A stretch of DNA of 40,689 bases, from the IMG/VR virus record IMGVR_UViG_3300027111_000004, positions 1 through 40,689 of that record, one strand, 5' to 3'. Source of the stretch: a virus. Below are positions 7,258 to 19,909 of this stretch, piece after piece (within the stretch, counting starts at the first letter, position 1; each line of letters begins with the position of its first letter). The position numbers and the translations under genes are program-made. The notes beneath the pieces are model-generated. The model made no database searches and had not been told where the DNA came from. It saw nothing but the letters and a program-made list of their open reading frames with translations.

Positions 7258-8151
7258 ATGAAGCGGGTCAACCAGTTTTTGCCCAGCTCTGTTGAGGCTG
7301 CCGCATACGCCGGCCTTGATGCCATCCCGGATATCCTGACCAAACGCCCAAAACTTCCACCGCGTGACCGCACCGGTCAAAAGCGGCGCCTTACTGGCGT
7401 CACTGAAGATCAAGGCCGGATGTTCGGTGGCCTGTTCAAGAAGGCGATCGCCCGAGTTCACGAAGAGGCCGACAAGCGCGAGGGTAAATTCCTGCGCCGC
7501 TTCGACGATATCAACGACTCGCGCACGTATCAGCAGCGCTGGGACGCGCTCGCCGAGCTGATTGGCCCGCTGTGCGCGCGCCTGGATCTGGCTCAGATGG
7601 TGGTTGGCTGGATGGACAAGCATGGAAAAATGCACGTCAACCGTCAGCGCAAGTTGTGCGAGGACTCGGGCGTTCGCGAGTGGACGCTGTCGCGGCTGCT
7701 CAGCGACCTTGAGCGCGCCGGTTATGTGCGCCGCAAGTTCCGCCGGATCTTCTACAAGGGTAAAAAGTGGATCACCCGCGTCACGATTCACGTTCGCCGG
7801 CGGTTCTTTATCGATTTGGGGCTGGGCCATGAGCTGGCCGAGGCTCAAACCCGCAAGCGCGTAGAGCGTCGCACCGTCTTGGGCGTGGCGCAGGCGCGCA
7901 CTCGGCAATCCTTGGAAAAGGAAGCGGCCGAGGCCAAGGTGCGCAAAGACTCGCACGACGCCGCCCAGCGCGCCGTCCGGCAAAAGCAACACCAGCAGAA
8001 GCAGCTCGACAAGGTCGAGTATAAAAGAGCCTGGACGGCGGCCTGGGTGGCATTTGCCCAAGCCAATGCAGACCTTGGCCGGCTCCAGCTCTCCCAGGCA
8101 TTCGCCCGGGCGCACCCTCACTTCGCTATACATCCCGACTCGCTGCCCTAG
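7258..8151 (+). CDS. repA: Plasmid replication initiator, IncFII RepA-like (297 aa)
   Basis: The core KLCEDSGVREWTLSRLLSDLERAGYVRRKF...KWITRVTIHVRRRFFIDLGLGHELAEA parallels the R1/R100 RepA segment (LAIECGL...SITRATRAL.FLSELGLI...IPTDITFT.ALF..L.VS.E). The C-terminus is basic and Gln/Lys-rich. Confidence 0.7.
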   Translation: MKRVNQFLPSSVEAAAYAGLDAIPDILTKRPKLPPRDRTGQKRRLTGVTEDQGRMFGGLFKKAIARVHEEADKREGKFLRRFDDINDSRTYQQRWDALAELIGPLCARLDLAQMVVGWMDKHGKMHVNRQRKLCEDSGVREWTLSRLLSDLERAGYVRRKFRRIFYKGKKWITRVTIHVRRRFFIDLGLGHELAEAQTRKRVERRTVLGVAQARTRQSLEKEAAEAKVRKDSHDAAQRAVRQKQHQQKQLDKVEYKRAWTAAWVAFAQANADLGRLQLSQAFARAHPHFAIHPDSLP

Positions 8152-8289
8152 CGCACCTCTCCCCAGCACCGCCACCGGCGGTGCCTTCGCTCGCCTGCGC
8201 CCTGCCAGCGCCCTCTCGGGTGCCTTCGGCGACCTCACCCCCCTCGATTTGTCCTCTTTGGCACCCACATTTCCGACGAAATCGCCCCT

Positions 8290-8440
8290 GAAAAAGTCGG
8301 CGCGCCGATCGAGCAGTTAGCTGCTTTTGAATATCTGCAAGATTAGTCGTTCACTGGTACCGAAGGGCTTTAAAAGATCCGCTTTAAAGCTCAATAACCG
8401 TGCCATTTGTGCATGACGAGCTGACGAAATAGATATGCCT
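8290..8440. other. Candidate replication origin (oriR-like A/T-rich patch downstream of repA)
   Basis: This is the only A/T-rich stretch after repA. It has a GCTTTAAA(A)G direct repeat at 8367 and 8381 flanking a GATC, and a DnaA-box-like TGTGCATGA. Position matches IncFII oriR. Confidence 0.3.
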
Positions 8441-8793
8441 GCCCACTTCGCGCCTGGAGGCGCGGGGCAAGGAAACAGCTCTGCGGTCACCCCGCCGCCG
8501 TTCCTTCAGTGAGGCGCCTTCCAGTCGCTGTGGGACGTTCCAAGCTCGCGCTCGACTCAATCCCTGGTCGACGTCCCTTCGCTCCTTCACGCGCCGCCTG
8601 CGGCCAGTCGGTCGCGCAAGCGCTCCAGTGGTCAGGTCGGGGGCTGCCCTGCGTTCGGTGTTCTGCCTGTTGCCTCCGCGTTGCCTGTATCAGCGATTAC
8701 AGGCGACAGCGAAGGCCGTGGCCGCGCTCGGCGCTTGTCGCAGCTCTGGCGGCCTTGTGGTGCGTTTGGCGACTGGGCGCATAATGAGCGTAT

Positions 8794-8825
8794 TAACGAA
8801 ATAACGAATTGACGAATTAACGAAA
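8794..8825 (+). repeat. 8-bp periodic array 1 (4 units)
   Basis: TAACGAAA TAACGAAT TGACGAAT TAACGAAA. Confidence 0.9.
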
Positions 8826-8837
8826 CGCGAATAAGGT
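8809..8837 (+). promoter_or_regulatory. Putative promoter embedded in array 1
   Basis: TTGACG-17 nt-TAAGGT. The -35 is created by the TGACGAAT variant unit. It lies 50 bp upstream of ATG 8888. Confidence 0.35.
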
Positions 8838-8887
8838 TCGTCCCAAGGCCGGGCATTACGTCAAGGCCGCACTCCGGGATAAAACCG

Positions 8888-9202
8888 ATGACTAAACAAG
8901 CACCGCATGTGGTCGCTTTGAAAAAAGCGTTCTTCGATCGTTACGCAATTCAACTCAATGTTCGTATGGCTGGGGGGGCGCAGCGCGATTGCCTAGTGCT
9001 GGCGGTACCGGAATTTCGCAAGCTGCCCGAGGTCGACCGTGTGCAGTTGGTGGATATCGGTATCTGGCTAGAGGCTCAAGGCTACTATTCGTGCGAGGAT
9101 TACGGCCGCGTTGGGTTGCTGGCGTCCCCGTCTGGCTGGACGTGCTGGCATGGCGGGGCCTCGGTCAAGGTCAGGTACTGCCCTGATCGATTAACGAAAT
9201 AA
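8888..9202 (+). CDS. Hypothetical protein (104 aa)
   Basis: ORF preceded by array 1. Its last codons (R-L-T-K-stop) are encoded by array 2. Confidence 0.55.
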   Translation: MTKQAPHVVALKKAFFDRYAIQLNVRMAGGAQRDCLVLAVPEFRKLPEVDRVQLVDIGIWLEAQGYYSCEDYGRVGLLASPSGWTCWHGGASVKVRYCPDRLTK

Positions 9203-9223
9203 CGATTTAACGAAATAACGACA
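9192..9223 (+). repeat. 8-bp periodic array 2 (4 units)
   Basis: TAACGAAA TAACGATT TAACGAAA TAACGACA. Confidence 0.9.
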
Positions 9224-9224
9224 A

Positions 9225-9247
9225 CCGCCGGCACTGCCGGCGGTTTA
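9225..9247 (+). terminator. Hairpin after ORF 8888-9202
   Basis: CCGCCGGC-act-GCCGGCGG (8-bp perfect stem) followed by TTTA. The U-tract is weak. Confidence 0.4.
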
Positions 9248-9264
9248 GCATTGGAGGCTGATGG

Positions 9265-9678
9265 ATGTTTGCTTTGTTGCGGCGTGACGGGTCACGCGAG
9301 GAATTCGACGCGCCGGATATGTGGGAGGCGATGCGCGCAGCGCTGCGTCTGGACGCCGCTCAACTGGAAGTGCCGGGTGATCCCCCGCGTTCGATGACTG
9401 CTGACCAAGTGCGCCAGGAGCTGGCTCTGAATCGCCCCGGGTTGTTTGATGCTTTTGCGCCTGGGTGGATGCCTCCTACGGTTGAGGAATTCCGCGAGCT
9501 GTTGCGTGTGACCGGGTTGCCGGCAAGTGCGGCCGGGCTGCTGGTAGGTGTTTCACAGAAAAAGATCCGCAAGTGGGCCGGTGGCGAGGGGGACGTGCCT
9601 TACGCTGTCTGGCGCCTGCTGAGCATTTATGCCGGGCTGGCCAAGCCGTCAGTCCGTGGTGACGAATTAACGAAATAA
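9265..9678 (+). CDS. Hypothetical protein with a C-terminal XRE-type helix-turn-helix (137 aa)
   Basis: GGAGG RBS. EFRELLRVTGLPASAAGLLVGVSQKKIRKWAGGEGDVPYAVWRLL is HTH-like. The last codons (E-L-T-K-stop) are encoded by array 3. Confidence 0.6.
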   Translation: MFALLRRDGSREEFDAPDMWEAMRAALRLDAAQLEVPGDPPRSMTADQVRQELALNRPGLFDAFAPGWMPPTVEEFRELLRVTGLPASAAGLLVGVSQKKIRKWAGGEGDVPYAVWRLLSIYAGLAKPSVRGDELTK

Positions 9679-9699
9679 CGAATTGACGAATTAACGAAA
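9660..9699 (+). repeat. 8-bp periodic array 3 (5 units)
   Basis: TGACGAAT TAACGAAA TAACGAAT TGACGAAT TAACGAAA. Confidence 0.9.
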
Positions 9700-9711
9700 C
9701 GACTTTAAAGT
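9683..9711 (+). promoter_or_regulatory. Putative promoter embedded in array 3
   Basis: TTGACG-17 nt-TAAAGT. The layout matches that at 8809-8837. Confidence 0.4.
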
Positions 9712-9763
9712 CTGCTCCAAGGCCGGGCAATTTCCCGCCAAGGCCGCCCACCGGAGCAGACCG

Positions 9764-9964
9764 ATGACCACCGCGCAACAATCAGCCATGCAGGCCGTGG
9801 CCAACCAACTCCCAACTTCCCGTTTGATTGAGGCCGTCCGTTTTGTGGGTGGTGCCGTTTTGCCGCCCTCCGAAAACATGGCCCGTGCTGCATTACTGAC
9901 GTCCTATCAGGAGCGTGAAGGCGATGACGCGTTAGACGCGCTCATGGATGAAATCGGACTTTAA
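9764..9964 (+). CDS. Hypothetical protein (66 aa)
   Basis: ORF downstream of the duplicated array/promoter module. It is followed closely by the next gene's AAGGAG RBS. Confidence 0.5.
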   Translation: MTTAQQSAMQAVANQLPTSRLIEAVRFVGGAVLPPSENMARAALLTSYQEREGDDALDALMDEIGL

Positions 9965-9977
9965 AGGAGCGTTGGCC

Positions 9978-11345
9978 ATGGCCCGCAAGAAACCCGCTGC
10001 ACACCTCGCCCGTGACGAACGGCCGGAATTCCTCGCGCTGGTGGCTGAGCTGGCCGACGTGCCCGCCGAACAGTTCCCGGCGCTGGCCAAGCAGGCCGCC
10101 GAGCAGTACCACGATGCGGTACTGGCGGGCCACGTCGACGCGCTCGATCGGGCCGAAGATGCCTATACCGCACTGGTCTACAAGCTCAACGGTGACAGCC
10201 TTCGCGGTTGCAAGGCCGATGCCGACAGCGCCGGTCATGTGCTGGCCCGTGCGGTCGCGGCGCAGCCGGGGCAGGTGCCGGGCTGGGGGCAGGCGGGCGA
10301 GTTCCTGCTGGAGGTCGACGGTTTGCGGGTGTGGGTGGTGGTGCCCCATCACATGCTGGGTAATCACCGGTTTTGTGACTTTCGCGCGGTGGATCTGGAC
10401 AAGCCGTTTGTCTCCGAAACCGGATACCGGTCCGTGACCCTGACCGCGACGTCGAGCATTGGCGAAACCGTGGATCAGGCTGCGCGCCGCGAGGTGCTGG
10501 AGTTGATCCAGGCGGCGGGCAAACTCAAAACGATCGAGGGCGAGTATGTCGATCGCCGGGGTGCAGACAAGCGCCCGGCATGGCTGGTCGACGCATTGGC
10601 CGGCGTGCGCGCTGACGGTCAGTTGGCCATGTTCGGTGATGCCCCTAAAGACCCGAATGCCAAGGCGCCCTTGACCAACGCCCAGCGGCAGAAAGCCTTT
10701 CGCGAGCGCAAGCGCGCCGAAAAGGAGGCTGCCAAAGAGGAAGGGCTGGTGTCGTTGTCGCTGGGGCGTGATGACCTCAGCTATATGTGGTGGGCCATGA
10801 GCGTGTTTCTGACTGCGCGGCGCGACCTTGAACACCTCAAGCAACCGTATGTGCGCGAGCGGCTGGCCAAGATTTTTGGCGGGTTGCCTTTCTGGACGCC
10901 CGATGCGATCGAAAAGCTGGATCAGGATCAAGGGATTTTGAACGGCGAAAAGCGCGTGGAATCAGAGCGCAAGCGCGGTTGGGAGGAATACGAGAAGTAC
11001 CGCAAGATCGCCGCCGCCCAGGGCAAGGAGCTGGCCGAGGCGCGGGCGGAAATCGAGCGCCTGAAAAACGGCTTGCAGGCGATAGCGGCCGAAGTCAGTG
11101 GCACGCCGGCGCCGATCGGGGCGGCAGTATCGGCCGCCGTGCCCAAGGCTGACGAGGTGGCCACGTTGCGCCGTCAGGTCGCGGCGCTGGAGCGTGAAAA
11201 CGCCCTGCTCGAAAGCGAGCGCAACAAGGCGCACATGGCGATCGGTACATGGGAGCAGCGTCTGCGCGCGGCCGGCCAGTCGACCGACTACCGTGCGTTG
11301 CCGGGCGAACCGGGTCACGTTACCGTAACGCCGGACAAGGATTGA
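9978..11345 (+). CDS. Hypothetical protein (455 aa) with a basic segment and a C-terminal coiled coil
   Basis: AAGGAG RBS 9 nt before ATG 9978. It has a basic motif LTNAQRQKAFRERKRAEKEAAKEE and heptad-like ELAEARAEIERLKNGL...LRRQVAALERENALLESE. Confidence 0.7.
   Translation: MARKKPAAHLARDERPEFLALVAELADVPAEQFPALAKQAAEQYHDAVLAGHVDALDRAEDAYTALVYKLNGDSLRGCKADADSAGHVLARAVAAQPGQVPGWGQAGEFLLEVDGLRVWVVVPHHMLGNHRFCDFRAVDLDKPFVSETGYRSVTLTATSSIGETVDQAARREVLELIQAAGKLKTIEGEYVDRRGADKRPAWLVDALAGVRADGQLAMFGDAPKDPNAKAPLTNAQRQKAFRERKRAEKEAAKEEGLVSLSLGRDDLSYMWWAMSVFLTARRDLEHLKQPYVRERLAKIFGGLPFWTPDAIEKLDQDQGILNGEKRVESERKRGWEEYEKYRKIAAAQGKELAEARAEIERLKNGLQAIAAEVSGTPAPIGAAVSAAVPKADEVATLRRQVAALERENALLESERNKAHMAIGTWEQRLRAAGQSTDYRALPGEPGHVTVTPDKD
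11318..11330. repeat. Dispersed palindrome copy
   Basis: CGTTAC-C-GTAACG inside the 3' end of 9978-11345 (codons H-V-T-V-T-P). Confidence 0.9.
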
Positions 11346-11349
11346 GCTG

Positions 11350-12000
11350 ATGACCGATGAACACGACAGCGAATCGGGCGCGGTTTTCGACGATTGGCAG
11401 CCGCTGACCGATGCTGAGGTGCGCGCCGGCGCGCGGCCGGGCGAAAGCTGGGCGCAGGCCCGCCGCCGCTTGGAAGGCTTGAGCAAGGCCGAGACGGCCG
11501 TCGGGCTTTCGCAGTGGTGGCACGATCGCCGGCCGGAGTATTTGCAGCCGCGTGCGTCGTTGCCGCGCGGGTTGCGCGATCCGGCCCAGTTGGCGGCGCA
11601 GTTGGCCGACTGGCAGGCGTATCACCGTCTGAGTTCGCGCGAGCGCTTCAACCTGCGCAACCCCGGCGTGCGTTGGCCGACCTATGACGAGTTGCTGGCC
11701 AGCCCGTTGGCTGATGCGCCGCGCGACTGGGTGGCCTGCGCCGAGCGCCTGCCGCACACCCACAACACGGCGCTGCGTTATCTGGTCCACACCGCGCATG
11801 ATCAGCGCGTGACGCTGGTGCGTTATGCCGGCAATGGCATGTGGTCGCGGGTCAGTGACGGGACGTTTATCAGCCGTGCCCGGCATTGGCGGGTTGCCCT
11901 GGAGCATGAGCAGGCGCAGGGCGAGCGCTCGGCCACTCGCGACGAGTGTTATCTGCTGGCCCGCCTGAGCCGGCTGCACGGGCGCTGCCCGTTTGCGTGA
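11350..12000 (+). CDS. Hypothetical protein (216 aa)
   Basis: ATG lies 4 nt after the upstream stop, so the genes are tightly packed. No confident motif. Confidence 0.6.
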   Translation: MTDEHDSESGAVFDDWQPLTDAEVRAGARPGESWAQARRRLEGLSKAETAVGLSQWWHDRRPEYLQPRASLPRGLRDPAQLAAQLADWQAYHRLSSRERFNLRNPGVRWPTYDELLASPLADAPRDWVACAERLPHTHNTALRYLVHTAHDQRVTLVRYAGNGMWSRVSDGTFISRARHWRVALEHEQAQGERSATRDECYLLARLSRLHGRCPFA

Positions 12001-12041
12001 CGGTGTTGGTCGTCTCTTCTATTACTGCAAGGAATTCCCCC

Positions 12042-12482
12042 ATGATCGAGCAGCCCCCGAAATTCCCCGACAACCCCAACCATGCCAACGGTACGTGTGA
12101 AGACTGCGGCGCGCCGTGTCAGGTCTACGGTTGCCGCTGGTGCCCGGCCTGTTACGACGCCGGCAGTGCGCGGATCCGCGACAGCGGGCGCCTGTCCCTG
12201 GTGCAGACGGCGGCCGAATGGGCGGCCTCGTTCAAGCCGCTGAGCGCGCCGATCGACACTCAGGCGCCGCCGGCGCCGTGGCAGCGCGAGGCGTTGGCCG
12301 CCGTGGTCCGGCCGGCGCTGGAACGGCTGGCCGGGCTGCCGCTGGTGGTCGATGACAACGTGCCGGCCGCGAGCGTGCTGGTGTGGTCGGCGCGCACGGG
12401 GCGCACGCCGGAGCAGGTCCGCGCGGTGTGCCTGCTGCTCGATGACGTCGACGCAGACGAGGCGCCGCCATGCCAGCCTTGA
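12042..12482 (+). CDS. Hypothetical Cys-rich (zinc-ribbon-like) protein (146 aa)
   Basis: AAGGA RBS. The N-terminus reads CEDCGAPCQVYGCRWCPAC. Confidence 0.6.
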   Translation: MIEQPPKFPDNPNHANGTCEDCGAPCQVYGCRWCPACYDAGSARIRDSGRLSLVQTAAEWAASFKPLSAPIDTQAPPAPWQREALAAVVRPALERLAGLPLVVDDNVPAASVLVWSARTGRTPEQVRAVCLLLDDVDADEAPPCQP

Positions 12483-12829
12483 GCGAGGTGCTGGACGTCG
12501 GCCCGCTGCTGTCGCTGGATGACGTGCTGAACATCCGCGACGCGGCGACCTATCTGGTGCGCGTCGAGGGCGAGAGCATGCAGGGGGCCGGCATTTTCGA
12601 CGGTGACCTGCTGGTGGTGAACAAGGGGCTGGAGCCGGTGCGCGGGCAGATCGTGATTGCCGTGGTCAACGGTGAGCCGCTGTGCAAGCGCCTGGACTTT
12701 TGCGCCCAAGGCCCGGTGCTGCGTTCGGAGAACCCGCGTTTCCCGCCGCGTTACGTGCTGGAGGGCGAGGATTTTTCCGTGTGGGGCGTGGTGACGCACA
12801 GCGTGCGCAGCCATGTTCACCGTGTTTGA
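12470..12829 (+). CDS. umuD: UmuD'-like S24 peptidase-fold protein (119 aa), with no HTH domain and no N-terminal cleavable arm
   Basis: ATYLVRVEGESMQGAGIFDGDLLVVNKGLEPVRGQIVIAVVNGEPLCKRL...FSVWGVVTHSVRS aligns by eye with E. coli UmuD ([26 protein letters not shown]...GDIVIAAVDGEFTVKKL...VFGVVIHVVK), starting after the UmuD cleavage site. Confidence 0.8.
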   Translation: MPALSEVLDVGPLLSLDDVLNIRDAATYLVRVEGESMQGAGIFDGDLLVVNKGLEPVRGQIVIAVVNGEPLCKRLDFCAQGPVLRSENPRFPPRYVLEGEDFSVWGVVTHSVRSHVHRV

Positions 12830-12929
12830 GTCGCTGGCCATGCTGGCCGGCAACTTCGGAAGCGTCCGACATATTCGCGCGACGTGCGCCGCTACACTCG
12901 CCGTTTTCTACCAGACAGGAGTCCCAAGC

Positions 12930-13142
12930 ATGCACCAGACGCCATCGGCCCCCCGGGGTTATCAGCTGATCGACGGCCCGCTGGCCGGCAATTTTTCCGC
13001 CTGTGAGGGTCAGCAGTTCGCCGTGGTGGTCGGTCAGCCGCCGCTACAAACGCAGGTCATTTACCGGCGCAGCCAGCACGACGGCCAGACCGTCTGGCGT
13101 TGTGGCGTTGAGCCGTGCCTTTCCCCTGATGAGCCGAACTGA
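12930..13142 (+). CDS. Small protein, paralog 1 of a 3-member tandem family (70 aa)
   Basis: Shared motif: LIDGPLAG...C......F.VV.G.......Y......G..VWRCG. Confidence 0.6.
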   Translation: MHQTPSAPRGYQLIDGPLAGNFSACEGQQFAVVVGQPPLQTQVIYRRSQHDGQTVWRCGVEPCLSPDEPN

Positions 13143-13156
13143 AAGGAATCCCCACC

Positions 13157-13375
13157 ATGACGACCGAACAACGCCGCGACCCGCTGCAATCCTTTGAGGT
13201 GATCGACGGCCCGCGCGCCGGCGAGTGGTTTGCCTGTGAGCGTGACAACTTCGACGTGCTGACCGGTGACCCCACCAACGGCACCGAGGCGCGTTACACG
13301 TACCACCTGACCCGAGAGGGTGACGGGCATGTCTGGCGGTGCGGTATCAAGACGGCCGCGCGCCGTCCGGACTGA
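13157..13375 (+). CDS. Small protein, paralog 2 (72 aa)
   Basis: VIDGPRAGEWFACERDNFDVLTGD...YTYHLTREGDGHVWRCG. GAAAGGAA RBS. Confidence 0.6.
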   Translation: MTTEQRRDPLQSFEVIDGPRAGEWFACERDNFDVLTGDPTNGTEARYTYHLTREGDGHVWRCGIKTAARRPD

Positions 13376-13381
13376 CCCGGC

Positions 13382-13395
13382 CGTTACCCGTAACG
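13382..13395. repeat. Dispersed palindrome copy
   Basis: CGTTAC-CC-GTAACG, intergenic between paralog genes 2 and 3. Confidence 0.9.
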
Positions 13396-13420
13396 AATCC
13401 CCCTGAAAGGAACCCGATTT

Positions 13421-13639
13421 ATGTTGACCGAACAGCCGTTCCCGCAAGTGCGCACCACCGTGCGCGATCCGATGAAAACGCTGATGGTGATCGACGGCCC
13501 GCTACAGGGGCAGGAGGTCGGCGCTGCGCATGACTGCTTTGAAGCCTTTGATGTGCTGACCGGCGAATCGCTGAAGGTCTGGTATCGCCTGAAGGCCCAG
13601 GGTGAGGATTTTGTGTGGTCATGCGCCGCGAGGGAGTGA
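13421..13639 (+). CDS. Small protein, paralog 3 (72 aa)
   Basis: VIDGPLQGQEVGAAHDCFEAFDVLTGESLKVWYRLKAQGEDFVWSC. GAAAGGAA RBS. Confidence 0.6.
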   Translation: MLTEQPFPQVRTTVRDPMKTLMVIDGPLQGQEVGAAHDCFEAFDVLTGESLKVWYRLKAQGEDFVWSCAARE

Positions 13640-13643
13640 CCGC

Positions 13644-13659
13644 GCGTTACCAATAACGC
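13644..13659. repeat. Dispersed palindrome copy (one arm mismatch)
   Basis: GCGTTAC-CA-ATAACGC, just after the stop of 13421-13639. Confidence 0.8.
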
Positions 13660-13673
13660 CGTTTATGTAAAAC

Positions 13674-13712
13674 GACCCCCACCAGTCAGGCGACCGGCGG
13701 GGGTCTTTTTTT
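13674..13712 (+). terminator. Rho-independent terminator
   Basis: GACCCCC...GGGGGTC stem followed by TTTTTTT. Confidence 0.65.
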
Positions 13713-13724
13713 ACGTCTGCGGTT

Positions 13725-13763
13725 CCCACTTTGCGCATAAGTGGGTGCCCACTTTGCTATCAT
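13725..13763 (+). promoter_or_regulatory. Operator repeats plus an extended -10 promoter for the 13812-16146 operon
   Basis: CCCACTT-tgcgcat-AAGTGGG inverted repeat. CCCACTTTGC is a direct repeat (13725, 13748). TGcTATCAT is an extended -10 at 13755-13763. Confidence 0.45.
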
Positions 13764-13811
13764 CTGGTTTTACGCAATACCCGCCCATTACTCGCAAAGG
13801 AGAACCCCGGC

Positions 13812-13991
13812 ATGGCGACCATCGCCGAAATCCGTCAGATGCTCGAAAAGGGCGAGCCGGTAACGATGCAGCGCCGCTATGTGGCTGCCGTGCTGGAAGG
13901 GCTGGCCGCGCAGCCGCGAGGCACCGAACAGTTCCGCGTCGTGCCCCTGCCCAACAACATGAGCGAAATCATTCTGGAGCGCCGAGGCTAG
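13812..13991 (+). CDS. Hypothetical small protein (59 aa)
   Basis: AAGGAGAA RBS before ATG 13812. It is the first gene after the promoter/operator. Confidence 0.55.
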   Translation: MATIAEIRQMLEKGEPVTMQRRYVAAVLEGLAAQPRGTEQFRVVPLPNNMSEIILERRG

Positions 13992-14045
13992 CGCTGTGAC
14001 GGTATGACGGTCGCCAGTAATGCGGCGCCGTCTGGCCCAACTGAG

Positions 14046-14095
14046 CGGCGCGTGACGCGTCACAACCTACGAAAGAAAGGAGATTCAACGCGATG
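14046..14095 (+). repeat. Repeated leader element, copy A (24-nt exact core with palindrome GTGACGCGTCAC, plus a shared RBS block)
   Basis: CGGCGCGTGACGCGTCACAACCTA ... AAGGAGATTCA.CGC.ATG. The same element recurs at 14479-14527. Confidence 0.9.
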
Positions 14096-14488
14096 AAAAA
14101 CAGCCACGGCCTCGACGTCGATTACTTCAGCCGCAAGATGGAGCGCATGCTGAACGGCGCGGGCAGCTACACCCGCGAGGAATGGGCACGCGAGTGCGCG
14201 CGCATGGCCAAGGTCGCCGATCCGGCGGTGCTGCTGGAGGCCGAGTTTGTCGGCGAGCCGGCACCGTTTGCCGGCAAGGTCGTCAGCAAGTTACAGCGGT
14301 TTTGGGCCTGCGCCGAAGACAACCAGGGCGCCGATATCGGCCGCCACTGGTTCGACCTGCTGACGCGGTTGGGTTTGTTGAACCGCGTGCAACGCAGCCC
14401 GGCGCTGTGGGAGCTGTCGCAGCAAGGCGAGGATCTGCTGGAGGCCGAGCGGGTGCGTGCGGTTCTTCTGGAAAAGTCCGGCGCGTGA
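14093..14488 (+). CDS. Hypothetical protein (131 aa)
   Basis: AAGGAG RBS within repeated leader A. No motif recognised. Confidence 0.65.
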   Translation: MKNSHGLDVDYFSRKMERMLNGAGSYTREEWARECARMAKVADPAVLLEAEFVGEPAPFAGKVVSKLQRFWACAEDNQGADIGRHWFDLLTRLGLLNRVQRSPALWELSQQGEDLLEAERVRAVLLEKSGA

Positions 14489-14527
14489 CGCGTCACAACC
14501 TATCGAGATAAGGAGATTCACCGCATG
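14479..14527 (+). repeat. Repeated leader element, copy B
   Basis: Has the same 24-nt core and the AAGGAGATTCA block as 14046-14095. The palindrome GTGACGCGTCAC (14485-14496) contains the TGA stop of the upstream gene. Confidence 0.9.
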
Positions 14528-14836
14528 AACACCCCTGATTTGATCCTGCCGCGCGTCGCCGTCGAAGGCGACGAGCTGGTGATTCGCATCACCCTCGACA
14601 TGCTCTGTCACTCCGTGACCATGGGCGACAACTGGCCAACCCACGGCGACGGCACGTCGGCCGCCACCATCGTCGACCGCGAGCTGTTCGCCCAGGAGCT
14701 GACCGGCGAGCTGCTGCGCGAAGACGAGCAGGGCGCCACGCCGTTGCTGCGCCTGTTTGACGACATGGCCCTGGAAGTGCTCGAGCAGAGCGGCGAGTCG
14801 ATCGAGCTGCACGAAGACGAGGACGACGACCAATGA
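14525..14836 (+). CDS. Hypothetical strongly acidic protein (103 aa)
   Basis: AAGGAG RBS in leader B. About a quarter of residues are Asp/Glu. The C-terminus is ELHEDEDDDQ. Confidence 0.65.
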   Translation: MNTPDLILPRVAVEGDELVIRITLDMLCHSVTMGDNWPTHGDGTSAATIVDRELFAQELTGELLREDEQGATPLLRLFDDMALEVLEQSGESIELHEDEDDDQ

Positions 14837-15171
14837 GCGGCCCGACGAATGTAGATGTGCCGGCGTGGCGTTGCCTGTCGAACCTTCTGGCTCTGGCCGA
14901 TCGCATGGACAACCCGCCGGCGGCCGCGCCGCTGGGCGCGTATTGGGTGGGTGAGCATGACGTCTATGCCGCGCACTCGCCCGAGCAGGCGCTGGAGCTG
15001 TGCGAAGGGCATTCGGGCATGCCCGACACCTTCGACATGGACGACGTGCGCGAGGTCAGTGCCGAGGATCTGGACAAGCCCATGGTGGAAGAGGACGGCA
15101 CGCCGTGCGGCAGCATGCGCACGTTGCTGGCCGCCATGACCGCGCCGGGCGAACTGGTGAGTTTCGAATGA
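14833..15171 (+). CDS. Hypothetical acidic protein (112 aa)
   Basis: ATGA start/stop overlap with the upstream gene. Confidence 0.6.
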   Translation: MSGPTNVDVPAWRCLSNLLALADRMDNPPAAAPLGAYWVGEHDVYAAHSPEQALELCEGHSGMPDTFDMDDVREVSAEDLDKPMVEEDGTPCGSMRTLLAAMTAPGELVSFE

Positions 15172-15593
15172 GCGGCCAAGCGAAGGTGTGCACGGCCACG
15201 AACGTGACCCTGTACGTCGACGGAGAAGAGTTGCCGTCGGTGGCCATCGGTTCGGCGCCGATCGGTCATGCTCCGCTGTTTACCGGCGTGATCGAGCTGG
15301 GCGGCCGGCTGTCGGCGGTGACGCTCGGGGAGGCTGACCCACTGTTGCCGGCGGTCGCGCGCTGGGTCGCGGCGCGGCCCTTCACCGGCCCCGGGGCAGT
15401 TCGGCGGCGGTTCGGCGTCGGCCTGCATCGAGCGCGCCGGCTGCTGACGGTGCTGGTCGAGCGGCGGCTGTTGCGTGGCCACTGGTGCCGGGTGGCGTCG
15501 ATCGCCTTTGTGGCCGGCAGTGAGGAATGGGCCTTTCGCATCTACCGGGTGCAGCCGTGGGCATGGGCGGATCTGCAAGGCGGTGCGTTATGA
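15168..15593 (+). CDS. Hypothetical protein with an FtsK-gamma-like winged-helix segment (141 aa)
   Basis: ATGA overlap. DPLLPAVARWVAARPFTGPGAVRRRFGVGLHRARRLLTVLVERRLL parallels the FtsK gamma domain (DPLFDQAVQFV....[30 protein letters not shown]). Confidence 0.55.
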   Translation: MSGQAKVCTATNVTLYVDGEELPSVAIGSAPIGHAPLFTGVIELGGRLSAVTLGEADPLLPAVARWVAARPFTGPGAVRRRFGVGLHRARRLLTVLVERRLLRGHWCRVASIAFVAGSEEWAFRIYRVQPWAWADLQGGAL

Positions 15594-15600
15594 GTAACGC
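15585..15600. repeat. Dispersed palindrome copy (one arm mismatch)
   Basis: GCGTTAT-GA-GTAACGC. It spans the ATGA stop/start overlap at 15590-15593. Confidence 0.8.
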
Positions 15601-15838
15601 GATTATCGGCATCGCCTTGCCGGCCAACGTGGTCGACGTGGTCCGGTGGATGCTTGAGGATCTGAGCCGGGCGCCGAACGAGCTTTCGGTGGCATATAAG
15701 CTGGGTGAGCTGCAAGGGGCCATAATGACTTTGGAGCGCTTGCAGCGTCTGAGCCGTGCCAATGCCGGGCGGCTCTGCCAGCATGCGAATGGTGTGGCCA
15801 GGCAGCGCGAGGTCGCGCTACAGGAGAAGCCGCAATGA
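15590..15838 (+). CDS. Hypothetical protein (82 aa)
   Basis: ATGA overlap with the upstream gene. Confidence 0.55.
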   Translation: MSNAIIGIALPANVVDVVRWMLEDLSRAPNELSVAYKLGELQGAIMTLERLQRLSRANAGRLCQHANGVARQREVALQEKPQ

Positions 15839-16146
15839 CGTTGCCGTTAGGGCCAGAGTTTGAACAGGATCTGCGCGACCTGCGTGCGCTGTCGCCCGAG
15901 GTCGCGGAGCTGGCCGAACGGATCGCCCAGGCAGTGCGGCCGGAGGCGACCGAGTCCGGCGCCTCGGTGTTGACCTGGGCGTTGTTTGAGCTGATGGACG
16001 CACTGGCCCAGGACTGGCCGAACAGCGTGCGCGTGACCTGTTCGTGGTTGGGGGATTTGCGCGTGTTGGGTGCGCTGACGAGCGCCGAGGTGGAGGGCTT
16101 CAAAGTCGAAGTGCGCCGCCTCGGCGGCAATTCGGCGTTACTGTAA
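15835..16146 (+). CDS. Hypothetical protein (103 aa)
   Basis: ATGA overlap with the upstream gene. It is the last gene of the translationally coupled block. Confidence 0.55.
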   Translation: MTLPLGPEFEQDLRDLRALSPEVAELAERIAQAVRPEATESGASVLTWALFELMDALAQDWPNSVRVTCSWLGDLRVLGALTSAEVEGFKVEVRRLGGNSALL

Positions 16147-16149
16147 CGC
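16135..16149. repeat. Dispersed palindrome copy
   Basis: GCGTTAC-T-GTAACGC with 7-bp arms. It contains the TAA stop of 15835-16146. Confidence 0.9.
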
Positions 16150-16263
16150 TTCGTTCATCTGGTAGTCTGCCGCCATTGGCGGGCCGTGCAGGTAAGAGGG
16201 GGTAGCGGTGGCATTTTCGTATGTAGGGCCGGCCGTGCTGCGGTTCACTGGCGCGGGGCAAGC

Positions 16264-16518
16264 ATGAAGCGCAAGGGTTACGAGGAGGGCAACTTTCTGG
16301 ATTTGGTGCGCGCCGGCGCGGTTCGCGAGAGCAAGGCGGCGCGAGTGACAACCCGTAAGGGCGAGCAATGGGCCTTCTATTTTCGCCTTGGCGGTCCCGC
16401 GTCTGATTGGCATGCGATCCGCTCCAAGCGCGAGCCAGTGCGCACCTGGGCGAAGCTGGACACGCTCGCGGAGTTTGCTGACAAGGCCGGTGTGCGAGTG
16501 TTTGCTGTCGAGCAGTAG
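16264..16518 (+). CDS. Hypothetical basic protein (84 aa)
   Basis: ATG 16264 (MKRKGYEEGNFLDLVRAG...). It is followed by a strong bidirectional terminator. Confidence 0.5.
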   Translation: MKRKGYEEGNFLDLVRAGAVRESKAARVTTRKGEQWAFYFRLGGPASDWHAIRSKREPVRTWAKLDTLAEFADKAGVRVFAVEQ

Positions 16519-16534
16519 CGGAAACGCCGGGCAC

Positions 16535-16616
16535 AAAAAAGCCGCCTCTATAGGGCGGCTTTTTCTTTGGTAGACCGGTTACTAAGCGTTCTACCTGTCT
16601 CACAGGAAGCATTGAC
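16535..16616 (-). ncRNA. Predicted ~80-nt sRNA with an 18-nt 5' antisense seed (antitoxin-like)
   Basis: Minus-strand promoter TTGCGC-17-TATTCT (-35 at 16647-16652, -10 at 16624-16629) places +1 at G 16616. The 5' end GUCAAUGCUUCCUGUGAG is complementary to 16905-16922. Next come hairpin GGTAGA...TCTACC (16569-16595), an A-rich linker, and terminator GCCGCC...GGCGGC plus a U-run. Confidence 0.4.
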
Positions 16617-16904
16617 GTAAAGAAGAATACTATTGCGCAACACTGCGCGCAAGTTATTGCAACTATGTACAACATGGCGCGCAGCCAGTATCGGCGTGGG
16701 TTTGCGCAATCTATTCACATTTAGACGAGCACCAAGCTCCGCTTTTGAGCCGATACGCCGCACCACATTCCAGATTTTTGACGTAAGATAAGCCCGTTGA
16801 ATGTGAATCGTGATGTGGGTCGGGTTGCTAAACGAATTCTGGACCAAGGGCGCGGACTACTAACCCGCGCGGATGAAACCTGAGGCCCTTTAACCCGGCT
16901 GAAC

Positions 16905-16922
16905 CTCACAGGAAGCATTGAC
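16905..16922 (+). repeat. Second copy of the exact 18-nt direct repeat CTCACAGGAAGCATTGAC (first copy at 16599-16616)
   Basis: Both copies were read directly. This one lies 69 nt upstream of the 32-codon ORF, within non-coding low-GC DNA. Confidence 0.95.
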
Positions 16923-16990
16923 ATGTTCCGAGGGCGTCATGTGTTCCGGAAAAGCGCCTGGGGTTAGGTCGGACTTCAGAGACCTAAAGT

Positions 16991-17089
16991 ATGAAGCGCA
17001 AGCCGAATGCACTGAAGGGGTTGATGATCCGGTTGATGGGTAACCTCATCTACGAATTCATCCGCGACAATTGGGACGATTGGCTGTAA
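16991..17089 (+). CDS. Unlisted 32-codon ORF (candidate small toxin-like peptide)
   Basis: MKRKPNALKGLMIRLMGNLIYEFIRDNWDDWL: basic N-terminus followed by an amphipathic/hydrophobic helix. A perfect 10-bp-stem terminator follows. No clear RBS or promoter was found. Confidence 0.35.
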   Translation: MKRKPNALKGLMIRLMGNLIYEFIRDNWDDWL

Positions 17090-17114
17090 CAGCAATCAGA
17101 CTGAGCGACGTGCG

Positions 17115-17146
17115 CCGCTCTAACTTCGGTTAGAGCGGTTTTTTTT
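17115..17146 (+). terminator. Rho-independent terminator
   Basis: CCGCTCTAAC-ttcg-GTTAGAGCGG followed by TTTTTTTT. Confidence 0.8.
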
Positions 17147-17152
17147 GCCCAT

Positions 17153-17177
17153 AAAAAAGCCCCGTCAGATGCGGGGC
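17153..17177 (-). terminator. Rho-independent terminator of the par operon (minus strand)
   Basis: GCCCCG-7 nt-CGGGGC. On the minus strand it is followed by TTTTTT. Confidence 0.7.
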
Positions 17178-17198
17178 TTTGCTTTGGTATTGGTCGAC

Positions 17199-17486
17199 TT
17201 ATTTGGTGCGTGGCTCGACCAAGTCTTTTAGGTCGCCAATGTCAGTTCCGTGCCGTTCCATGAACTCAAGTACCGCGGTGATCATGATGCGCGTGGATGA
17301 TGTTTTGTGCTGGTGGGCAAAGTCGTCTAGCGCATCCTTGAAGCGGCTTTCCGGCTTGAAGTTGAGCGGGACGCGCTTATGAGGATCTGGCTTTTCGGTG
17401 GCGTTGCCGAGGACTGGCGATGCCGAACCGCGCTTAGGTGGCTCGCCTTTGCCGGCGGCGGATGGTTTTTTAACGATGGCGACCAT
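17199..17486 (-). CDS. parG: Ribbon-helix-helix centromere-binding protein (ParG-like, 95 aa)
   Basis: Flexible basic N-terminal tail, then KRVPLNFKPESRFKDALDDFAHQHKTSSTRIMITAVLEFMERHG (beta-strand/helix/helix RHH pattern). It lies directly downstream of parA. Confidence 0.7.
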   Translation of the reverse strand: MVAIVKKPSAAGKGEPPKRGSASPVLGNATEKPDPHKRVPLNFKPESRFKDALDDFAHQHKTSSTRIMITAVLEFMERHGTDIGDLKDLVEPRTK

Positions 17487-17499
17487 GCGTCTTACTCCG

Positions 17500-17523
17500 A
17501 TTCTTTAATTCTTCAATTCGTTA
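17500..17523 (-). repeat. 8-bp periodic array 4 (3 degenerate units, minus orientation), between parA and parG
   Basis: Minus strand reads TAACGAAT TGAAGAAT TAAAGAAT. Confidence 0.75.
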
Positions 17524-17524
17524 T

Positions 17525-18166
17525 TTATTTAGACAGCTTAGTAAGCATGCTGTCAATTGCCGTTATCAGGCTGTCTGCTTGTTCGCGCGGCCCGGCGAAC
17601 TGAGTTTCGACTATGGATTTGCCGGCATCTTGGGCGCGGCGATAGCAGTCCTGTTCGTACAGCGAAGGCAGCAGGGTGTAGTCGGTTTGCATCAAAAAGT
17701 TACGGCACTCGACCAGCTCTTTGCCGCTATTGCCTACGTGATTCAATACAAGGGCAATGCGTGAAGGATCTACGCCATGCTTGTCTACCAGCGTATTGGC
17801 CAAGCGGACTGTCGGCCGCATATCAGTCTTCGCCATGCCGGTCGGCAGGATTATTAAGTCGCAAACCTTGGCCAGTTCGACGGTCATGCTTGAGGCCAGT
17901 GGGCGGCCATCAAAAATAGTGAGGTCGTATTTGTCGGAAGCCTTCAGTGCGCTTGCAGCGGTGCCAAAGGCCTGCACATTGATCGGGGCAAGCTTTGGAT
18001 TTTGCAGGCGATCAAGTAGCCATTCGTAACTTGAGGACTGGTCGATATCCAAATCTGCAAGGAGTACGTCCCAACCGCCGAGGGTGTAGGTGGCCGCGAG
18101 CGCCTCGCAAATCGTTGTCTTGCCTACACCGCCTTTCTGTGAAAAAGCACCAATACGCTTGCCCAT
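17525..18166 (-). CDS. parA: Partition ATPase, type Ib ParA/ParF-like (213 aa)
   Basis: Deviant Walker A at the N-terminus (GAFSQKGGVGKTT). It is small and has no N-terminal HTH. Confidence 0.9.
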   Translation of the reverse strand: MGKRIGAFSQKGGVGKTTICEALAATYTLGGWDVLLADLDIDQSSSYEWLLDRLQNPKLAPINVQAFGTAASALKASDKYDLTIFDGRPLASSMTVELAKVCDLIILPTGMAKTDMRPTVRLANTLVDKHGVDPSRIALVLNHVGNSGKELVECRNFLMQTDYTLLPSLYEQDCYRRAQDAGKSIVETQFAGPREQADSLITAIDSMLTKLSK

Positions 18167-18181
18167 GCGAACCCCTAGTTA

Positions 18182-18205
18182 ATTCGTTAATTCTTCAATT
18201 CGTTA
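18182..18205 (-). repeat. 8-bp periodic array 5 (3 units, minus orientation)
   Basis: Minus strand reads TAACGAAT TGAAGAAT TAACGAAT. It lies between the parA promoter and the parA start. Confidence 0.9.
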
Positions 18206-18215
18206 ACACAGGGCG

Positions 18216-18244
18216 AGTATAGGCCGGCGTGAAACGACTATCAA
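18216..18244 (-). promoter_or_regulatory. parA promoter, near consensus, bracketed by arrays 5 and 6
   Basis: Minus strand TTGATA (18244-18239), a 17-nt spacer, then TATACT (18221-18216). Confidence 0.65.
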
Positions 18245-18249
18245 GAAAA

Positions 18250-18273
18250 TAACGAATTAACGAAATAACGAAT
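18250..18273 (+). repeat. 8-bp periodic array 6 (3 units, plus orientation)
   Basis: TAACGAAT TAACGAAA TAACGAAT. It is inverted relative to array 5. Confidence 0.9.
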
Positions 18274-18276
18274 CGA

Positions 18277-18693
18277 TCAGACCGAAAGAAGGCAGCGCGA
18301 AGGCGGGCCGCCGGCCGAAGCTGGAGAGGTGCGCACGGTCCGCGAAAATTCGGTAAGGGTGCGACTGCGGCGCTGGGAGCGGGGGCGGTTGAAATCCGTG
18401 TCTACTTCCATGACTGCGATCAGGCACAGCATGAAGCACAGCGCTTGCGGGGCCAGTACGCCCAGCGTGAAGCCGCGAGTGATCATGTGCGCCTTGTTCT
18501 TTGCGCCGAGCTTGCTGAGGATGTTGCGCTCGACCATGCGCATGCCGGCATCATCCAGTTGCAGCTCGCTCGCGATAACCGGTGTCGGGAAGCCCTCGGC
18601 AGTCTTGACCAGAACGAACAGTTCGCTGTCCGACAGGTTCTGTCCCGGGTAGCCGATAACTTCCTCGCCGTGGATCTGGACGCGGGCATTCAT
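18277..18693 (-). CDS. LuxR/GerE-type HTH protein without a sensor domain, with a hydrophobic C-terminal segment (138 aa)
   Basis: AGGAAG RBS. LSDSELFVLVKTAEGFPTPVIASELQLDDAGMRMVERNILSKLGAKNKAHMITRGF fits the GerE HTH pattern. This is followed by ALCFMLCLIAVM. Confidence 0.65.
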   Translation of the reverse strand: MNARVQIHGEEVIGYPGQNLSDSELFVLVKTAEGFPTPVIASELQLDDAGMRMVERNILSKLGAKNKAHMITRGFTLGVLAPQALCFMLCLIAVMEVDTDFNRPRSQRRSRTLTEFSRTVRTSPASAGGPPSRCLLSV

Positions 18694-18730
18694 GGGGTGC
18701 GCTTCCTTGCGAAATAACGGGGAGGGGGTG

Positions 18731-18982
18731 TTAGTTGGAAAGGTCGAGGCGGATAGCGTCCAGTTGACGGCGCAGCATGCCAAGCAAGTCGGCCATCTGT
18801 TCCATGTGTTCAACGGTGACGTGTCCCTGGTCAATGCAATACAGGGCTGTGGTTTGCATTGAGCCTGCCAGCGAATGGACTTCTTTAATCGCGACTACGC
18901 GGCGGCGCTGAATGGCCACTGCGCCGCCGATTTGGCTGATGGAGTGCGGGGTGATGTGGGAAACGTCGCTACCTTGCTGCAT
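18731..18982 (-). CDS. Hypothetical protein (83 aa)
   Basis: AGGAAAGG RBS before ATG 18982. An operator-type palindrome lies just upstream. No motif recognised. Confidence 0.5.
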   Translation of the reverse strand: MQQGSDVSHITPHSISQIGGAVAIQRRRVVAIKEVHSLAGSMQTTALYCIDQGHVTVEHMEQMADLLGMLRRQLDAIRLDLSN

Positions 18983-19016
18983 GGGGGAACCTGCCTTTCC
19001 TAAGTTGCGTGGCATG

Positions 19017-19033
19017 TTACACGCAAAGTGTAA
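19017..19033. promoter_or_regulatory. Operator TTACAC-N5-GTGTAA (copy downstream of cI, upstream of gene 18982)
   Basis: TTACACgcaaaGTGTAA with perfect 6-bp arms. Confidence 0.55.
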
Positions 19034-19044
19034 ATCTGAGCAAT

Positions 19045-19067
19045 AAAAAAGCCCTTAGACTAAGGGC
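19045..19067 (-). terminator. Terminator after the repressor gene (minus strand)
   Basis: GCCCTTA-gac-TAAGGGC. On the minus strand it is followed by TTTTTT. Confidence 0.7.
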
Positions 19068-19074
19068 GGTTTTT

Positions 19075-19740
19075 CTATCTATCGTGCGATATGCGTACTA
19101 CGCGGCCGACGATATCCAGCTTTTCAAGGGCTTCAGGTGTCAAAGTGCTATCAGCGTACTGGGAACTGTCACCCGCTTTCAAGGTGAAAGTGCCGTCCAG
19201 TTCGGGGCAGATCCAGCGAATCCAGATGTTGCCGGCAACAATGATCCCGAAAAGGTCAGCGCCGCGCACGGTGGTTTGCTCGCCATCAAGCAGCAACTCG
19301 TCACCCTCAACGATCATCGGGGCCATGCTGGCATCGATCTGTTTGATGCAAAGCAGTTTATTGCGGTTCATGCCGCGCGCTTCGATATAGCTGACGCTGA
19401 ACGCGGTGCTGTCTGTGGCCTGGGTCAAAGGTACGGCCCCGGCTTTGGTTTGAATGCTGGTTGGGTTGGCCGTCACATAGTCGGACGTAACCGCATTCAG
19501 ACTGTCGTTATCGGTGTAGCCATTGATCCAAGCCGGAGTTTTCCCGAAGACTTTGGCGAGCAGCAAAACCATGTCGCTCGGCGGCATGCGCGAGGCCTGT
19601 TCCCAATTGGAAAAGCGGGAATAACCGAAGGGCTGGCCGGATGCTTGAGACAGGCGATCGGCCGTCTCTTCAAGCGTCCAACCCTTTTCCGCGCGACACT
19701 GCCTAATCCGTTTGGCCACAATTTCCATTAATTCAGACAT
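19075..19740 (-). CDS. cI: CI-type prophage repressor (XRE HTH plus S24 LexA-like autopeptidase domain, 221 aa)
   Basis: N-terminal HTH (IRQCRAEKGWTLEETADRLSQ...FSNWEQ). C-terminal S24 motif (DASMAPMIVEGDELLLD, later LKAG). It is divergent from a Cro-like gene. Confidence 0.85.
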   Translation of the reverse strand: MSELMEIVAKRIRQCRAEKGWTLEETADRLSQASGQPFGYSRFSNWEQASRMPPSDMVLLLAKVFGKTPAWINGYTDNDSLNAVTSDYVTANPTSIQTKAGAVPLTQATDSTAFSVSYIEARGMNRNKLLCIKQIDASMAPMIVEGDELLLDGEQTTVRGADLFGIIVAGNIWIRWICPELDGTFTLKAGDSSQYADSTLTPEALEKLDIVGRVVRISHDR

Positions 19741-19895: not shown

Positions 19896-19909
19896 AGGGG
19901 TTTCTATTC

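Follow-up and report, generated by a model that had tools for sequence, protein, structure and literature searches.

In plasmid TP228, the partition protein ParG recognizes sites built of 4-bp boxes and 4-bp AT spacers in mixed orientations, which its dimers coat cooperatively, one dimer per box, and both the operator OF and the site parH act as centromeres (PMC3130281). In pSM19035, the ribbon-helix-helix (RHH) protein omega occupies uninterrupted runs of 7-bp repeats placed over the copS, delta and omega promoters, and ParA is activated only by four or more repeats in a row (PMC9499535). The phage-plasmid N15 uses a SopAB partition system with four separate inverted-repeat (IR) centromere sites, IR1-4 (PMC7205306). 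Here we analyse a 40,689-nucleotide (nt) stretch of viral DNA (IMG/VR record IMGVR_UViG_3300027111_000004, positions 1 to 40,689; hereafter 'the window', meaning the whole stretch) that carries about 23 units of an 8-bp repeat, organized as six arrays at two loci 8 kb apart. We consider it likely, with a probability of roughly 0.8, that the arrays belong to a type Ib partition system whose 95-amino-acid (aa) centromere-binding protein, a predicted RHH protein, would bind all of them and also repress distal operons.

An original prediction, made from the letters of the window, had listed six arrays, and all six were found where it had placed them (Table 1). The exact unit TRACGAAW occurs 20 times in the window, compared with 3.07 ± 1.87 times in 100 dinucleotide-preserving shuffles, none of which reached 20; a two-unit pattern with up to three mismatches occurs 23 times against 1.52 ± 1.28 expected, and Tandem Repeats Finder reports period 8 at every array site. 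Three further single units, at 8422, 13391 and 22365, are no more than chance would give, and a two-unit site at 8414-8429 was treated as chance or marginal. The arrays near the par genes have three units each and the distal ones four to five contiguous units, both unit orientations are represented, and no array, here or in the relatives, departs from the 8-bp period. A position frequency matrix of 23 units reads WT-RACG-AA. The register is set by the relatives, which keep a constant AA-WT spacer around a variable 4-bp box, so that the box in the window is RACG or RAAG. The 8-bp period and the layout of a 4-bp box and a 4-bp spacer had thus been described correctly, but the proposed register, with ACGA as the box, does not hold.

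Repeats of this kind could in principle be protein-independent AT-rich promoter or curvature elements, or chance low complexity, and the arrays are AT-rich islands at promoters in a genome of about 63% GC. We regard this as extremely improbable: the units are phased at exactly 8 bp, they number 20 where 3 are expected, and, as described below, their boxes change in concert in each element against an unchanged spacer and unchanged promoter hexamers, which AT-richness alone would not bring about.

Table 1 Coordinates of the arrays, promoters, genes and neighbouring features. Positions refer to the window unless a related locus (L number) is named.
Feature	Position	Strand	Description
Rep-like gene	7258-8151	+	297 aa from ATG (start given by the open reading frame lister: TTG at 7144); winged helix and ~80-aa coiled coil
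Conserved non-coding block	8435-8646		Between Rep-like gene and array 1; 75-83% identity, across both Rep and box types
Array 1	8794-8825	+	4 units: TAACGAAA TAACGAAT TGACGAAT TAACGAAA; third unit TGACGAAT makes -35 box
Array 1 homologues	L014 13980-14011; L015 17683-17714
P1, putative promoter	8809-8837	+	TTGACG, 17-bp spacer, TAAGGT; -35 box and most of spacer inside array 1
Leader motif after P1	8843-8870	+	CCAAGGCCGGGCA...CAAGGCCGC
orf104	8888-9202	+	First gene after P1; ends RLTK-stop inside array 2
Array 2	9192-9223	+	4 units: TAACGAAA TAACGATT TAACGAAA TAACGACA; no TTG variant; at orf104 3' end, directly before hairpin
Array 2 counterparts (same position)	L014 13576-13607; L015 17278-17309
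Hairpin	9223-9245	+	GC-rich AACCGCCGGC-ACT-GCCGGCGGTT, directly after array 2; flagged by the scan on the minus strand
HTH137	9265-9678	+	137 aa; C-terminal half helix-turn-helix (HTH)-like; phrog_8351 match 4.6e-10; ELTK-stop inside array 3
Array 3	9660-9699	+	5 units; fourth unit TGACGAAT makes -35 box
P3, putative promoter	9683-9711	+	TTGACG, 17-bp spacer, TAAAGT; 9/12 consensus matches
Leader motif after P3	9717-9747	+	CCAAGGCCGGGCA...CCAAGGCCGC
orf66	9764-9964	+	First gene after P3; 79% identical to L005 homologue behind AGCK-type array
KlcB-like gene	9978-11345	+	35-50% identity to genes with precomputed Pfam KlcB_N / KlcB_3rd hits
ParG-like protein gene	17199-17486	-	95 aa; residues 1-36 disordered tail, then predicted RHH domain
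Array 4	17500-17523	-	3 degenerate units: TAACGAAT TGAAGAAT TAAAGAAT; between parA stop codon and ribosome-binding site (RBS) of ParG-like gene
ParA ATPase gene	17525-18166	-	213 aa, small, Walker type; without the N-terminal DNA-binding domain of type Ia ParA
Array 5	18182-18205	-	3 units: TAACGAAT TGAAGAAT TAACGAAT; between -10 box and parA RBS
par promoter	18216-18244	-	TTGATA, 17-bp spacer, TATACT; 10/12 consensus matches; flanked by arrays 5 and 6
Array 6	18250-18273	+	3 units; orientation opposite to parA; ends 5 bp upstream of par -35 box

The par locus has the composition of a type Ib system, with a small ParA, a predicted RHH protein encoded directly downstream, and arrays 5 and 6 flanking the operon promoter. 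This promoter was located between the two arrays on the minus strand, as had been proposed, and in most RACG and AGCK loci compared (box types are defined below) the TATACT hexamer is kept, with arrays on both sides. ParA matches Pfam CbiA/AAA_31 over residues 3-183 and a ParA-like PHROG at 2e-27; against NCBIfam ParA_partition it aligns over positions 2-189 of 203 with 89 bits, below the 180-bit cut-off. In a phmmer search of the PDB, its residues ~107-188 also matched TAL-effector repeat proteins, down to 5e-10 for the whole sequence with no single stretch passing, probably an artefact of weak matches summed over many repeats. The open reading frame (ORF) for the 95-aa protein begins 39 bp after parA, and array 4, in the gap, may include a fourth, degenerate unit, TAAATAAA, that would extend it to 17531. 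Upstream of parA, a GerE/LuxR-like gene (18277-18834) ends 4 bp from array 6 and is itself preceded by a cI-like gene (19075-19746). All three genes are on the same strand, and read-through from this immunity operon into parA and the ParG-like gene, beside transcription from the par promoter, is therefore possible.

Searched on its own, the 95-aa sequence gave nothing significant in Pfam, PHROGs, NCBIfam or the PDB, and a family profile and structure prediction were therefore used. The profile search yielded a family of 93 clusters, nearly all on contigs typical of such elements, mostly 35-45 kb in length. Some family members show weak matches to Pfam 56B_RHH and RHH_10, and the family profile matches SvtR (2kel) with E=1.2e-4. 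The AlphaFold2 model, built from a 62-sequence alignment, has a disordered N-terminal third, an extended segment at residues 38-45 and helices at 47-59 and 64-78, with a mean predicted local distance difference test (pLDDT) score of 89-96 over residues 41-90. Almost all of its Foldseek matches in the PDB are RHH proteins (CopA_SO, CopG, ORF56, Arc, SvtR and AmrZ), and the top match, CopA_SO, has a target-normalized template modelling (TM) score of 0.74-0.80 at a probability of 1.0. From these models we predict that the 95-aa protein is an RHH protein. Its disordered tail carries a conserved K-P...G-x-P-P...G-N-x-T pattern, a candidate ParA-interaction segment by analogy with ParG.

At the distal locus, arrays 1 and 3 are merged with putative promoters, designated P1 and P3. 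In each, the variant unit TGACGAAT and the preceding T spell TTGACG, one further unit occupies the spacer, and the -10 box follows at 17 bp; the original prediction had pointed out these array-made -35 boxes, and both putative promoters were recovered. It had also noticed that arrays write the C-terminal codons of two ORFs, which is borne out for orf104 and HTH137, and that two modules of ~100 bp are duplicates: 8780-8895 and 9654-9771 align with 86% mean column identity, and both contain the array, a -10 box, CCAAGGCCGGGCA, CAAGGCCGC and CCGATGAC. The geometry of P3 is kept in L014, L015 and L013, which have boxes of the window's type, and that of P1 in relatives of both box types. Relatives with AGCK boxes use TTGCGC, TTGTGC or TTGAGC, a 16-bp spacer, and TAGAAT or TAAACT, so that both groups share a TTGnnn hexamer within the array, a spacer of 16-17 bp and a TAnnnT -10 box. 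The composite operator/promoter is thus conserved through a change in operator sequence, which argues that both functions are under selection.

The first at least 100 bases of the window recur at 40563-40689 (an overlap of ~127 nt with 1-127), which makes it a circularized contig of about 40,562 bp that is probably a complete element. Its genes cover tail, lysis, terminase, integrase and cI-like functions as well as ParA, and the plasmids pHN2 and pPAC1.3b are among its relatives; the element is therefore a circular Pseudomonas phage-plasmid of ~40.6 kb. Megablast of 6500-20000 found no match among phage records and only one among plasmids, pHN2 of Pseudomonas sp. HN2, which covered 10% of the query and is the sole DNA-level relative in the curated collections. 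At the protein level, the complete, circular 42.8-kb Pseudomonas aeruginosa plasmid pPAC1.3b (L017) is a relative. Because DNA-level relatives are so scarce, the comparison was made through protein-anchored loci: 20 related loci, anchored on ParA and the 95-aa downstream protein and drawn from the GTDB genome collection, IMG/VR, Logan/JGI/NCBI assemblies and PLSDB.

Nearly all 20 related loci share a common layout: a pair of arrays around the parA promoter, in most cases another array after parA, and a further two to five distal arrays, which lie several kb away before a block of same-strand genes. An array at the position of array 4 was counted in 18 of the 19 related loci compared, and is missing from L019 and L020. 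Across these loci the AAWT spacer is constant and the box falls into three types. RACG or RAAG boxes occur in the window and L013-L016; AGCT or AGCG boxes (together AGCK) occur in pHN2, pPAC1.3b and eleven others (L001, L002, L004-L012, L017 and L021 in all); and CAAG, AAAG or AACG boxes (YAAG type) occur in two Azotobacter-type loci, L019 and L020. When the loci were cross-scanned with three-unit probes, one box type was clearly dominant at both par-proximal and distal sites in 18 of the 20; in L018 the counts are low and RACG ties with AGCK, and in L014 the types overlap to some extent. This concerted change, together with the predicted RHH fold and the conserved embedded promoter, supports the earlier proposal that one small RHH protein serves both loci.

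Box type tracks the par genes. Each type pairs with a distinct lineage of ParA and small protein: by tblastn, identity within the RACG group is 83-92% for ParA and 75-84% for the RHH protein, and falls to ~41% and 26%, respectively, when RACG members are compared with AGCK members. The genes that adjoin the arrays behave differently, in that orf108 is 92% identical between L015 and pHN2, although the array directly upstream is RACG in the former and AGCK in the latter, and orf66 of the window and of L005 are likewise similar behind arrays of different type. Box type is also independent of Rep type, since L013 combines RACG boxes with a pHN2-type Rep whereas L010-L012 combine AGCK boxes with a window-type Rep. 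With box type following the ParA/small-protein module only, the arrays co-evolve with something that this module supplies in trans and not with neighbouring genes.

The same data bear on the idea that the distal arrays are iterons of the Rep-like protein, serving as origin or copy-control sites, with their likeness to the par arrays being secondary. The arrays do lie 640 bp downstream of the gene for this protein, a winged-helix protein found only on plasmids, and tandem direct repeats are typical of iterons. However, box type does not follow Rep type; the window-type and pHN2-type Rep proteins have no detectable similarity (E=0.17); the same units surround the parA promoter; and known iterons are typically about 17-22 bp in length rather than 8 bp. 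Iteron function of the arrays is thus highly improbable, and was rejected on the independent assortment of Rep and box types in L013 and L010-L012. A search of 6560-8800 for iteron-like repeats also found none. As P1 and P3 point away from the Rep-like gene, control of the initiator is not implied.

The original prediction had called this Rep-like protein RepA, a label that is unproven. It has no significant match in Pfam, PHROGs or NCBIfam, 29 plasmids of Pseudomonas/Azotobacter but no phage record carry a homologue, and its AlphaFold2 model (pLDDT 84.7) gives weak Foldseek matches to winged-helix proteins, including the N-terminal domain of staphylococcal RepA (4pt7/4pql). Its role in replication is putative.

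Another element-encoded regulator, namely HTH137, the GerE/LuxR-like protein or the cI-like protein, might bind the arrays in place of the 95-aa protein. All three are predicted to bind DNA, and HTH137 and the GerE-like protein are encoded right beside arrays. We nevertheless rejected them on presence, absence and divergence, and consider this explanation very unlikely: HTH137 is missing from six array-bearing loci (L013, L004, L005 and L010-L012), the GerE-like protein is missing from L009-L012, and the cI-like proteins of L013 and the window are only 31% identical, although both loci have RACG boxes. Gapless head-to-tail 8-bp units also correspond to the binding mode of RHH proteins and not of HTH dimers.

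The predicted strand of the 95-aa family varies with the boxes. In solved RHH-DNA complexes, alternate residues of the strand face the protein core and the DNA. The residues of the predicted strand that would face the core, V39 and F43, are at least 90% conserved in the 62-sequence alignment, and L41 is replaced by other hydrophobic residues (I, F or C) in some members. By analogy with those complexes, the DNA-facing residues would be R-P/S/T-N-K with RACG boxes, L-D-G-K with AGCT, and L-D-N-K with AGCG or CAAG. In particular, the residue aligned with Asn42 is Gly where box position 4 is T (AGCT, in the pHN2 type and L021), and Asn where it is G (RACG, AGCG and CAAG, in the window group, L017, L018 and L019/L020).

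Together, these observations suggest how the system may operate. Dimers of the 95-aa RHH protein would coat the arrays cooperatively, with one dimer per 8-bp unit. Occupancy of arrays 5 and 6 would autoregulate parA and the ParG-like gene and assemble the partition complex on which ParA acts, and array 4 would be a further site between these two genes. The same protein would bind arrays 1 and 3, 8 kb away, where it would cover the -35 box and spacer, repressing orf104 and probably HTH137 at P1, and orf66, the KlcB-like gene and genes downstream at P3. Array 2 would serve as a promoter-less site at the end of orf104.

The distal arrays may be operators only, with the RHH protein repressing P1 and P3 while partition proceeds through the par-proximal arrays alone. 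The centromere of a type Ib system normally adjoins the par operon, as in TP228, and the exact placement of arrays 1 and 3 on the -35 box and spacer would be enough to explain their conservation. We hold this restricted role to be possible but rather doubtful, because the operator arrays of TP228 and pSM19035 are themselves proficient centromeres (PMC3130281, PMC9499535), array 2 has no promoter and yet its position is conserved, and the distal arrays have four to five contiguous units against three at the par-proximal sites, where ParA activation in pSM19035 needs at least four (PMC9499535). The distal arrays, and not the par-proximal ones, might even be the functional centromeres.

A more speculative extension, which we think unlikely, is that the partition protein acts as a developmental or copy-number sensor beyond any housekeeping repression, with occupancy of the distal arrays gating the operons of the plasmid-prophage state. 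The operons in question would be the KlcB-like operon here and, in the Azotobacter-type relatives, those of the Bro-N/ORF6N antirepressor-like genes. As copy number or the state of the partition complex changed, the protein would be diluted or titrated, and this would feed into the choice between plasmid maintenance and phage development. In this view the three box types, with their matching changes in the putative DNA-facing strand residues, would also amount to a readable RHH recognition code.

Several points weigh against the proposal of a combined partition protein and distal repressor. Binding, repression, partition, the ratio of one dimer per unit and centromere activity are what we infer for this system. 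Neither Pfam ParG nor a solved chain of ParG or omega is matched by the 95-aa protein: the ParG models in Pfam gave no match to it or to seven family members at E up to 1, no ParG chain appeared in PDB sequence searches or among the top 50 Foldseek matches, and no sequence similarity to omega was detected. Among the PDB matches of the window's ParA, there is likewise no ParF chain. The RHH assignment comes from a predicted monomer in which DSSP assigns no strand, and its Foldseek E-values are weak (at least 0.12) because the RHH domain is small. The par-proximal arrays have three units each, a number of contiguous repeats that failed to activate ParA in pSM19035 (PMC9499535). P1 and P3 are predicted promoters, called from consensus matches. 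Finally, three box types represent few evolutionary switches, so that the co-variation is strong but reflects few independent events.

For the genes that this proposed repressor would control, the original prediction spoke of three small ones beside the origin. The KlcB-like gene probably belongs to the P3 operon, and the same-strand run of ORFs after P3, which includes an S24 peptidase, extends to ~16.1 kb; more genes than these three are therefore probably regulated. The KlcB label rests on the relatives' precomputed Pfam hits, and our Pfam scan found no KlcB match for the window gene or for the relatives that carry those hits. orf104 has no family match in Pfam, PHROG or NCBIfam, and its homologues in L014 and L015 are 77-87% identical. 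In the two Azotobacter-type loci, the genes downstream of the distal arrays (L019 14415-14446 and 16118-16143; L020 14268-14299 and 15978-16003) encode Bro-N or ORF6N domains, as phage antirepressors typically do. This arrangement hints that the partition protein may reach into the lysis-lysogeny circuits of some members.

Between the -10 box and the start codon of the array-controlled genes lies a leader motif, CCAAGGCCGGGCA...(C)CAAGGCCGC...CCGGAG, which is also present in L001, L005-L008, L014 and L015 and is conserved irrespective of box type. It may be the site of a second regulator or a translation signal; as an RNA structure it found no support (RNAalifold covariation term -0.08). The hairpin after array 2 would be a weak terminator or attenuator on the plus strand, only weak because just TTT follows it there. 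For the conserved non-coding block, a structure of 33 pairs is predicted, in which 96.7% of cells are paired and 14 are compensatory, compared with 5.2 ± 1.6 in shuffles, and its conserved long-range stems surround a variable segment of ~35 nt. The block, which has no Rfam match, may be an origin element or a structured RNA. Scanning the window against Rfam and for tRNAs likewise gave nothing.

Two further observations concern repeats and insertions. In the tail region, 2616-2944 contains a tandem repeat of 111 bp (37 codons), in 2.2-2.7 copies with 80-88% identity. In pPAC1.3b, a Tn3-family transposon with a RelE/ParE toxin module (37206-42774) lies between the Rep-like gene and the first array-controlled gene, and the array/promoter module at 727-790 is intact.

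Our analysis points to the protein that probably binds the centromere, and to every candidate site for it, in phage-plasmids of Pseudomonas/Azotobacter that had not been studied as a family. The arrangement is known from other plasmids but undescribed for this family, and the mechanism is conceptually not new; it would extend the design in which a partition protein acts as a global repressor, seen in Firmicute inc18 and in IncP plasmids, to Gram-negative phage-plasmids. The family also provides a natural specificity series, in which scaffold, promoter geometry and the AAWT spacer are constant while three box types occur with matching changes in the predicted DNA-facing residues. Such a series could be used to study RHH-DNA recognition and incompatibility among related elements, and as a source of orthogonal repressor/operator pairs.

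Among described systems, RK2 and N15 share individual features with the window. In RK2 (IncP-1), the partition protein of the KorB/IncC system is at the same time a global repressor that acts at scattered operators, and klcB is part of the kil-kor regulon; one putative target operon in the window encodes a KlcB-like protein. KorB, however, is a large HTH ParB that acts on 13-bp palindromes, and is unlike the window's system in protein class and site architecture. N15 is likewise a phage-plasmid with its partition protein at several separate genome sites, as we propose here, and a study cited in PMC11652158 is reported to link its sop system to late gene expression. It differs in being a type Ia system in which a large HTH ParB (SopB) acts at single palindromes and spreads, whereas the window has a small RHH protein and tandem 8-bp arrays.

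The resemblance to TP228 ParF/ParG is closer. Both systems encode a small ParA followed by a small RHH protein (here predicted) with a flexible N-terminal tail, and in both, a 4-bp box and a 4-bp AT-rich spacer give an 8-bp period, with direct and inverted units that overlap the par promoter. The likeness to parH in boxes, AT spacers and mixed orientation, on which the original prediction had built its comparison, is upheld (PMC3130281), but it extends to site architecture and not to sequence membership, given that neither Pfam ParG nor a solved ParF chain is matched. The box is ACTC in TP228 and RACG/RAAG here, and 20 contiguous boxes at one locus contrast with ~23 units in six arrays at two loci. 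In the window, moreover, two of the arrays hold the -35 boxes of unrelated operons, and the host is a phage-plasmid.

The delta/omega system of pSM19035 has in common with the window contiguous, short, non-palindromic repeats in mixed orientation, each taken by one dimer (proposed here), and arrays over several separate promoters, that of par included, so that one protein would be both partition adaptor and global repressor. It uses a 7-bp heptad, WATCACW, in arrays of 7-10, in place of 8-bp units in arrays of 3-5, and its targets are copy control and a toxin-antitoxin system on a Firmicute plasmid, where the proposed targets here are orf104/HTH137 and an orf66/KlcB-like operon on a Pseudomonas phage-plasmid. 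With arrays at the predicted par promoter, P1 and P3, the window has the multi-promoter layout of the omega type. By these comparisons the system appears to work like TP228 ParG/parH and pSM19035 omega while being a sequence member of neither family, and each step of the proposed mechanism has an experimental precedent in TP228 ParG/parH-OF and pSM19035 omega. The omega system is the closer analogue of the network, and ParG/parH that of the site architecture.

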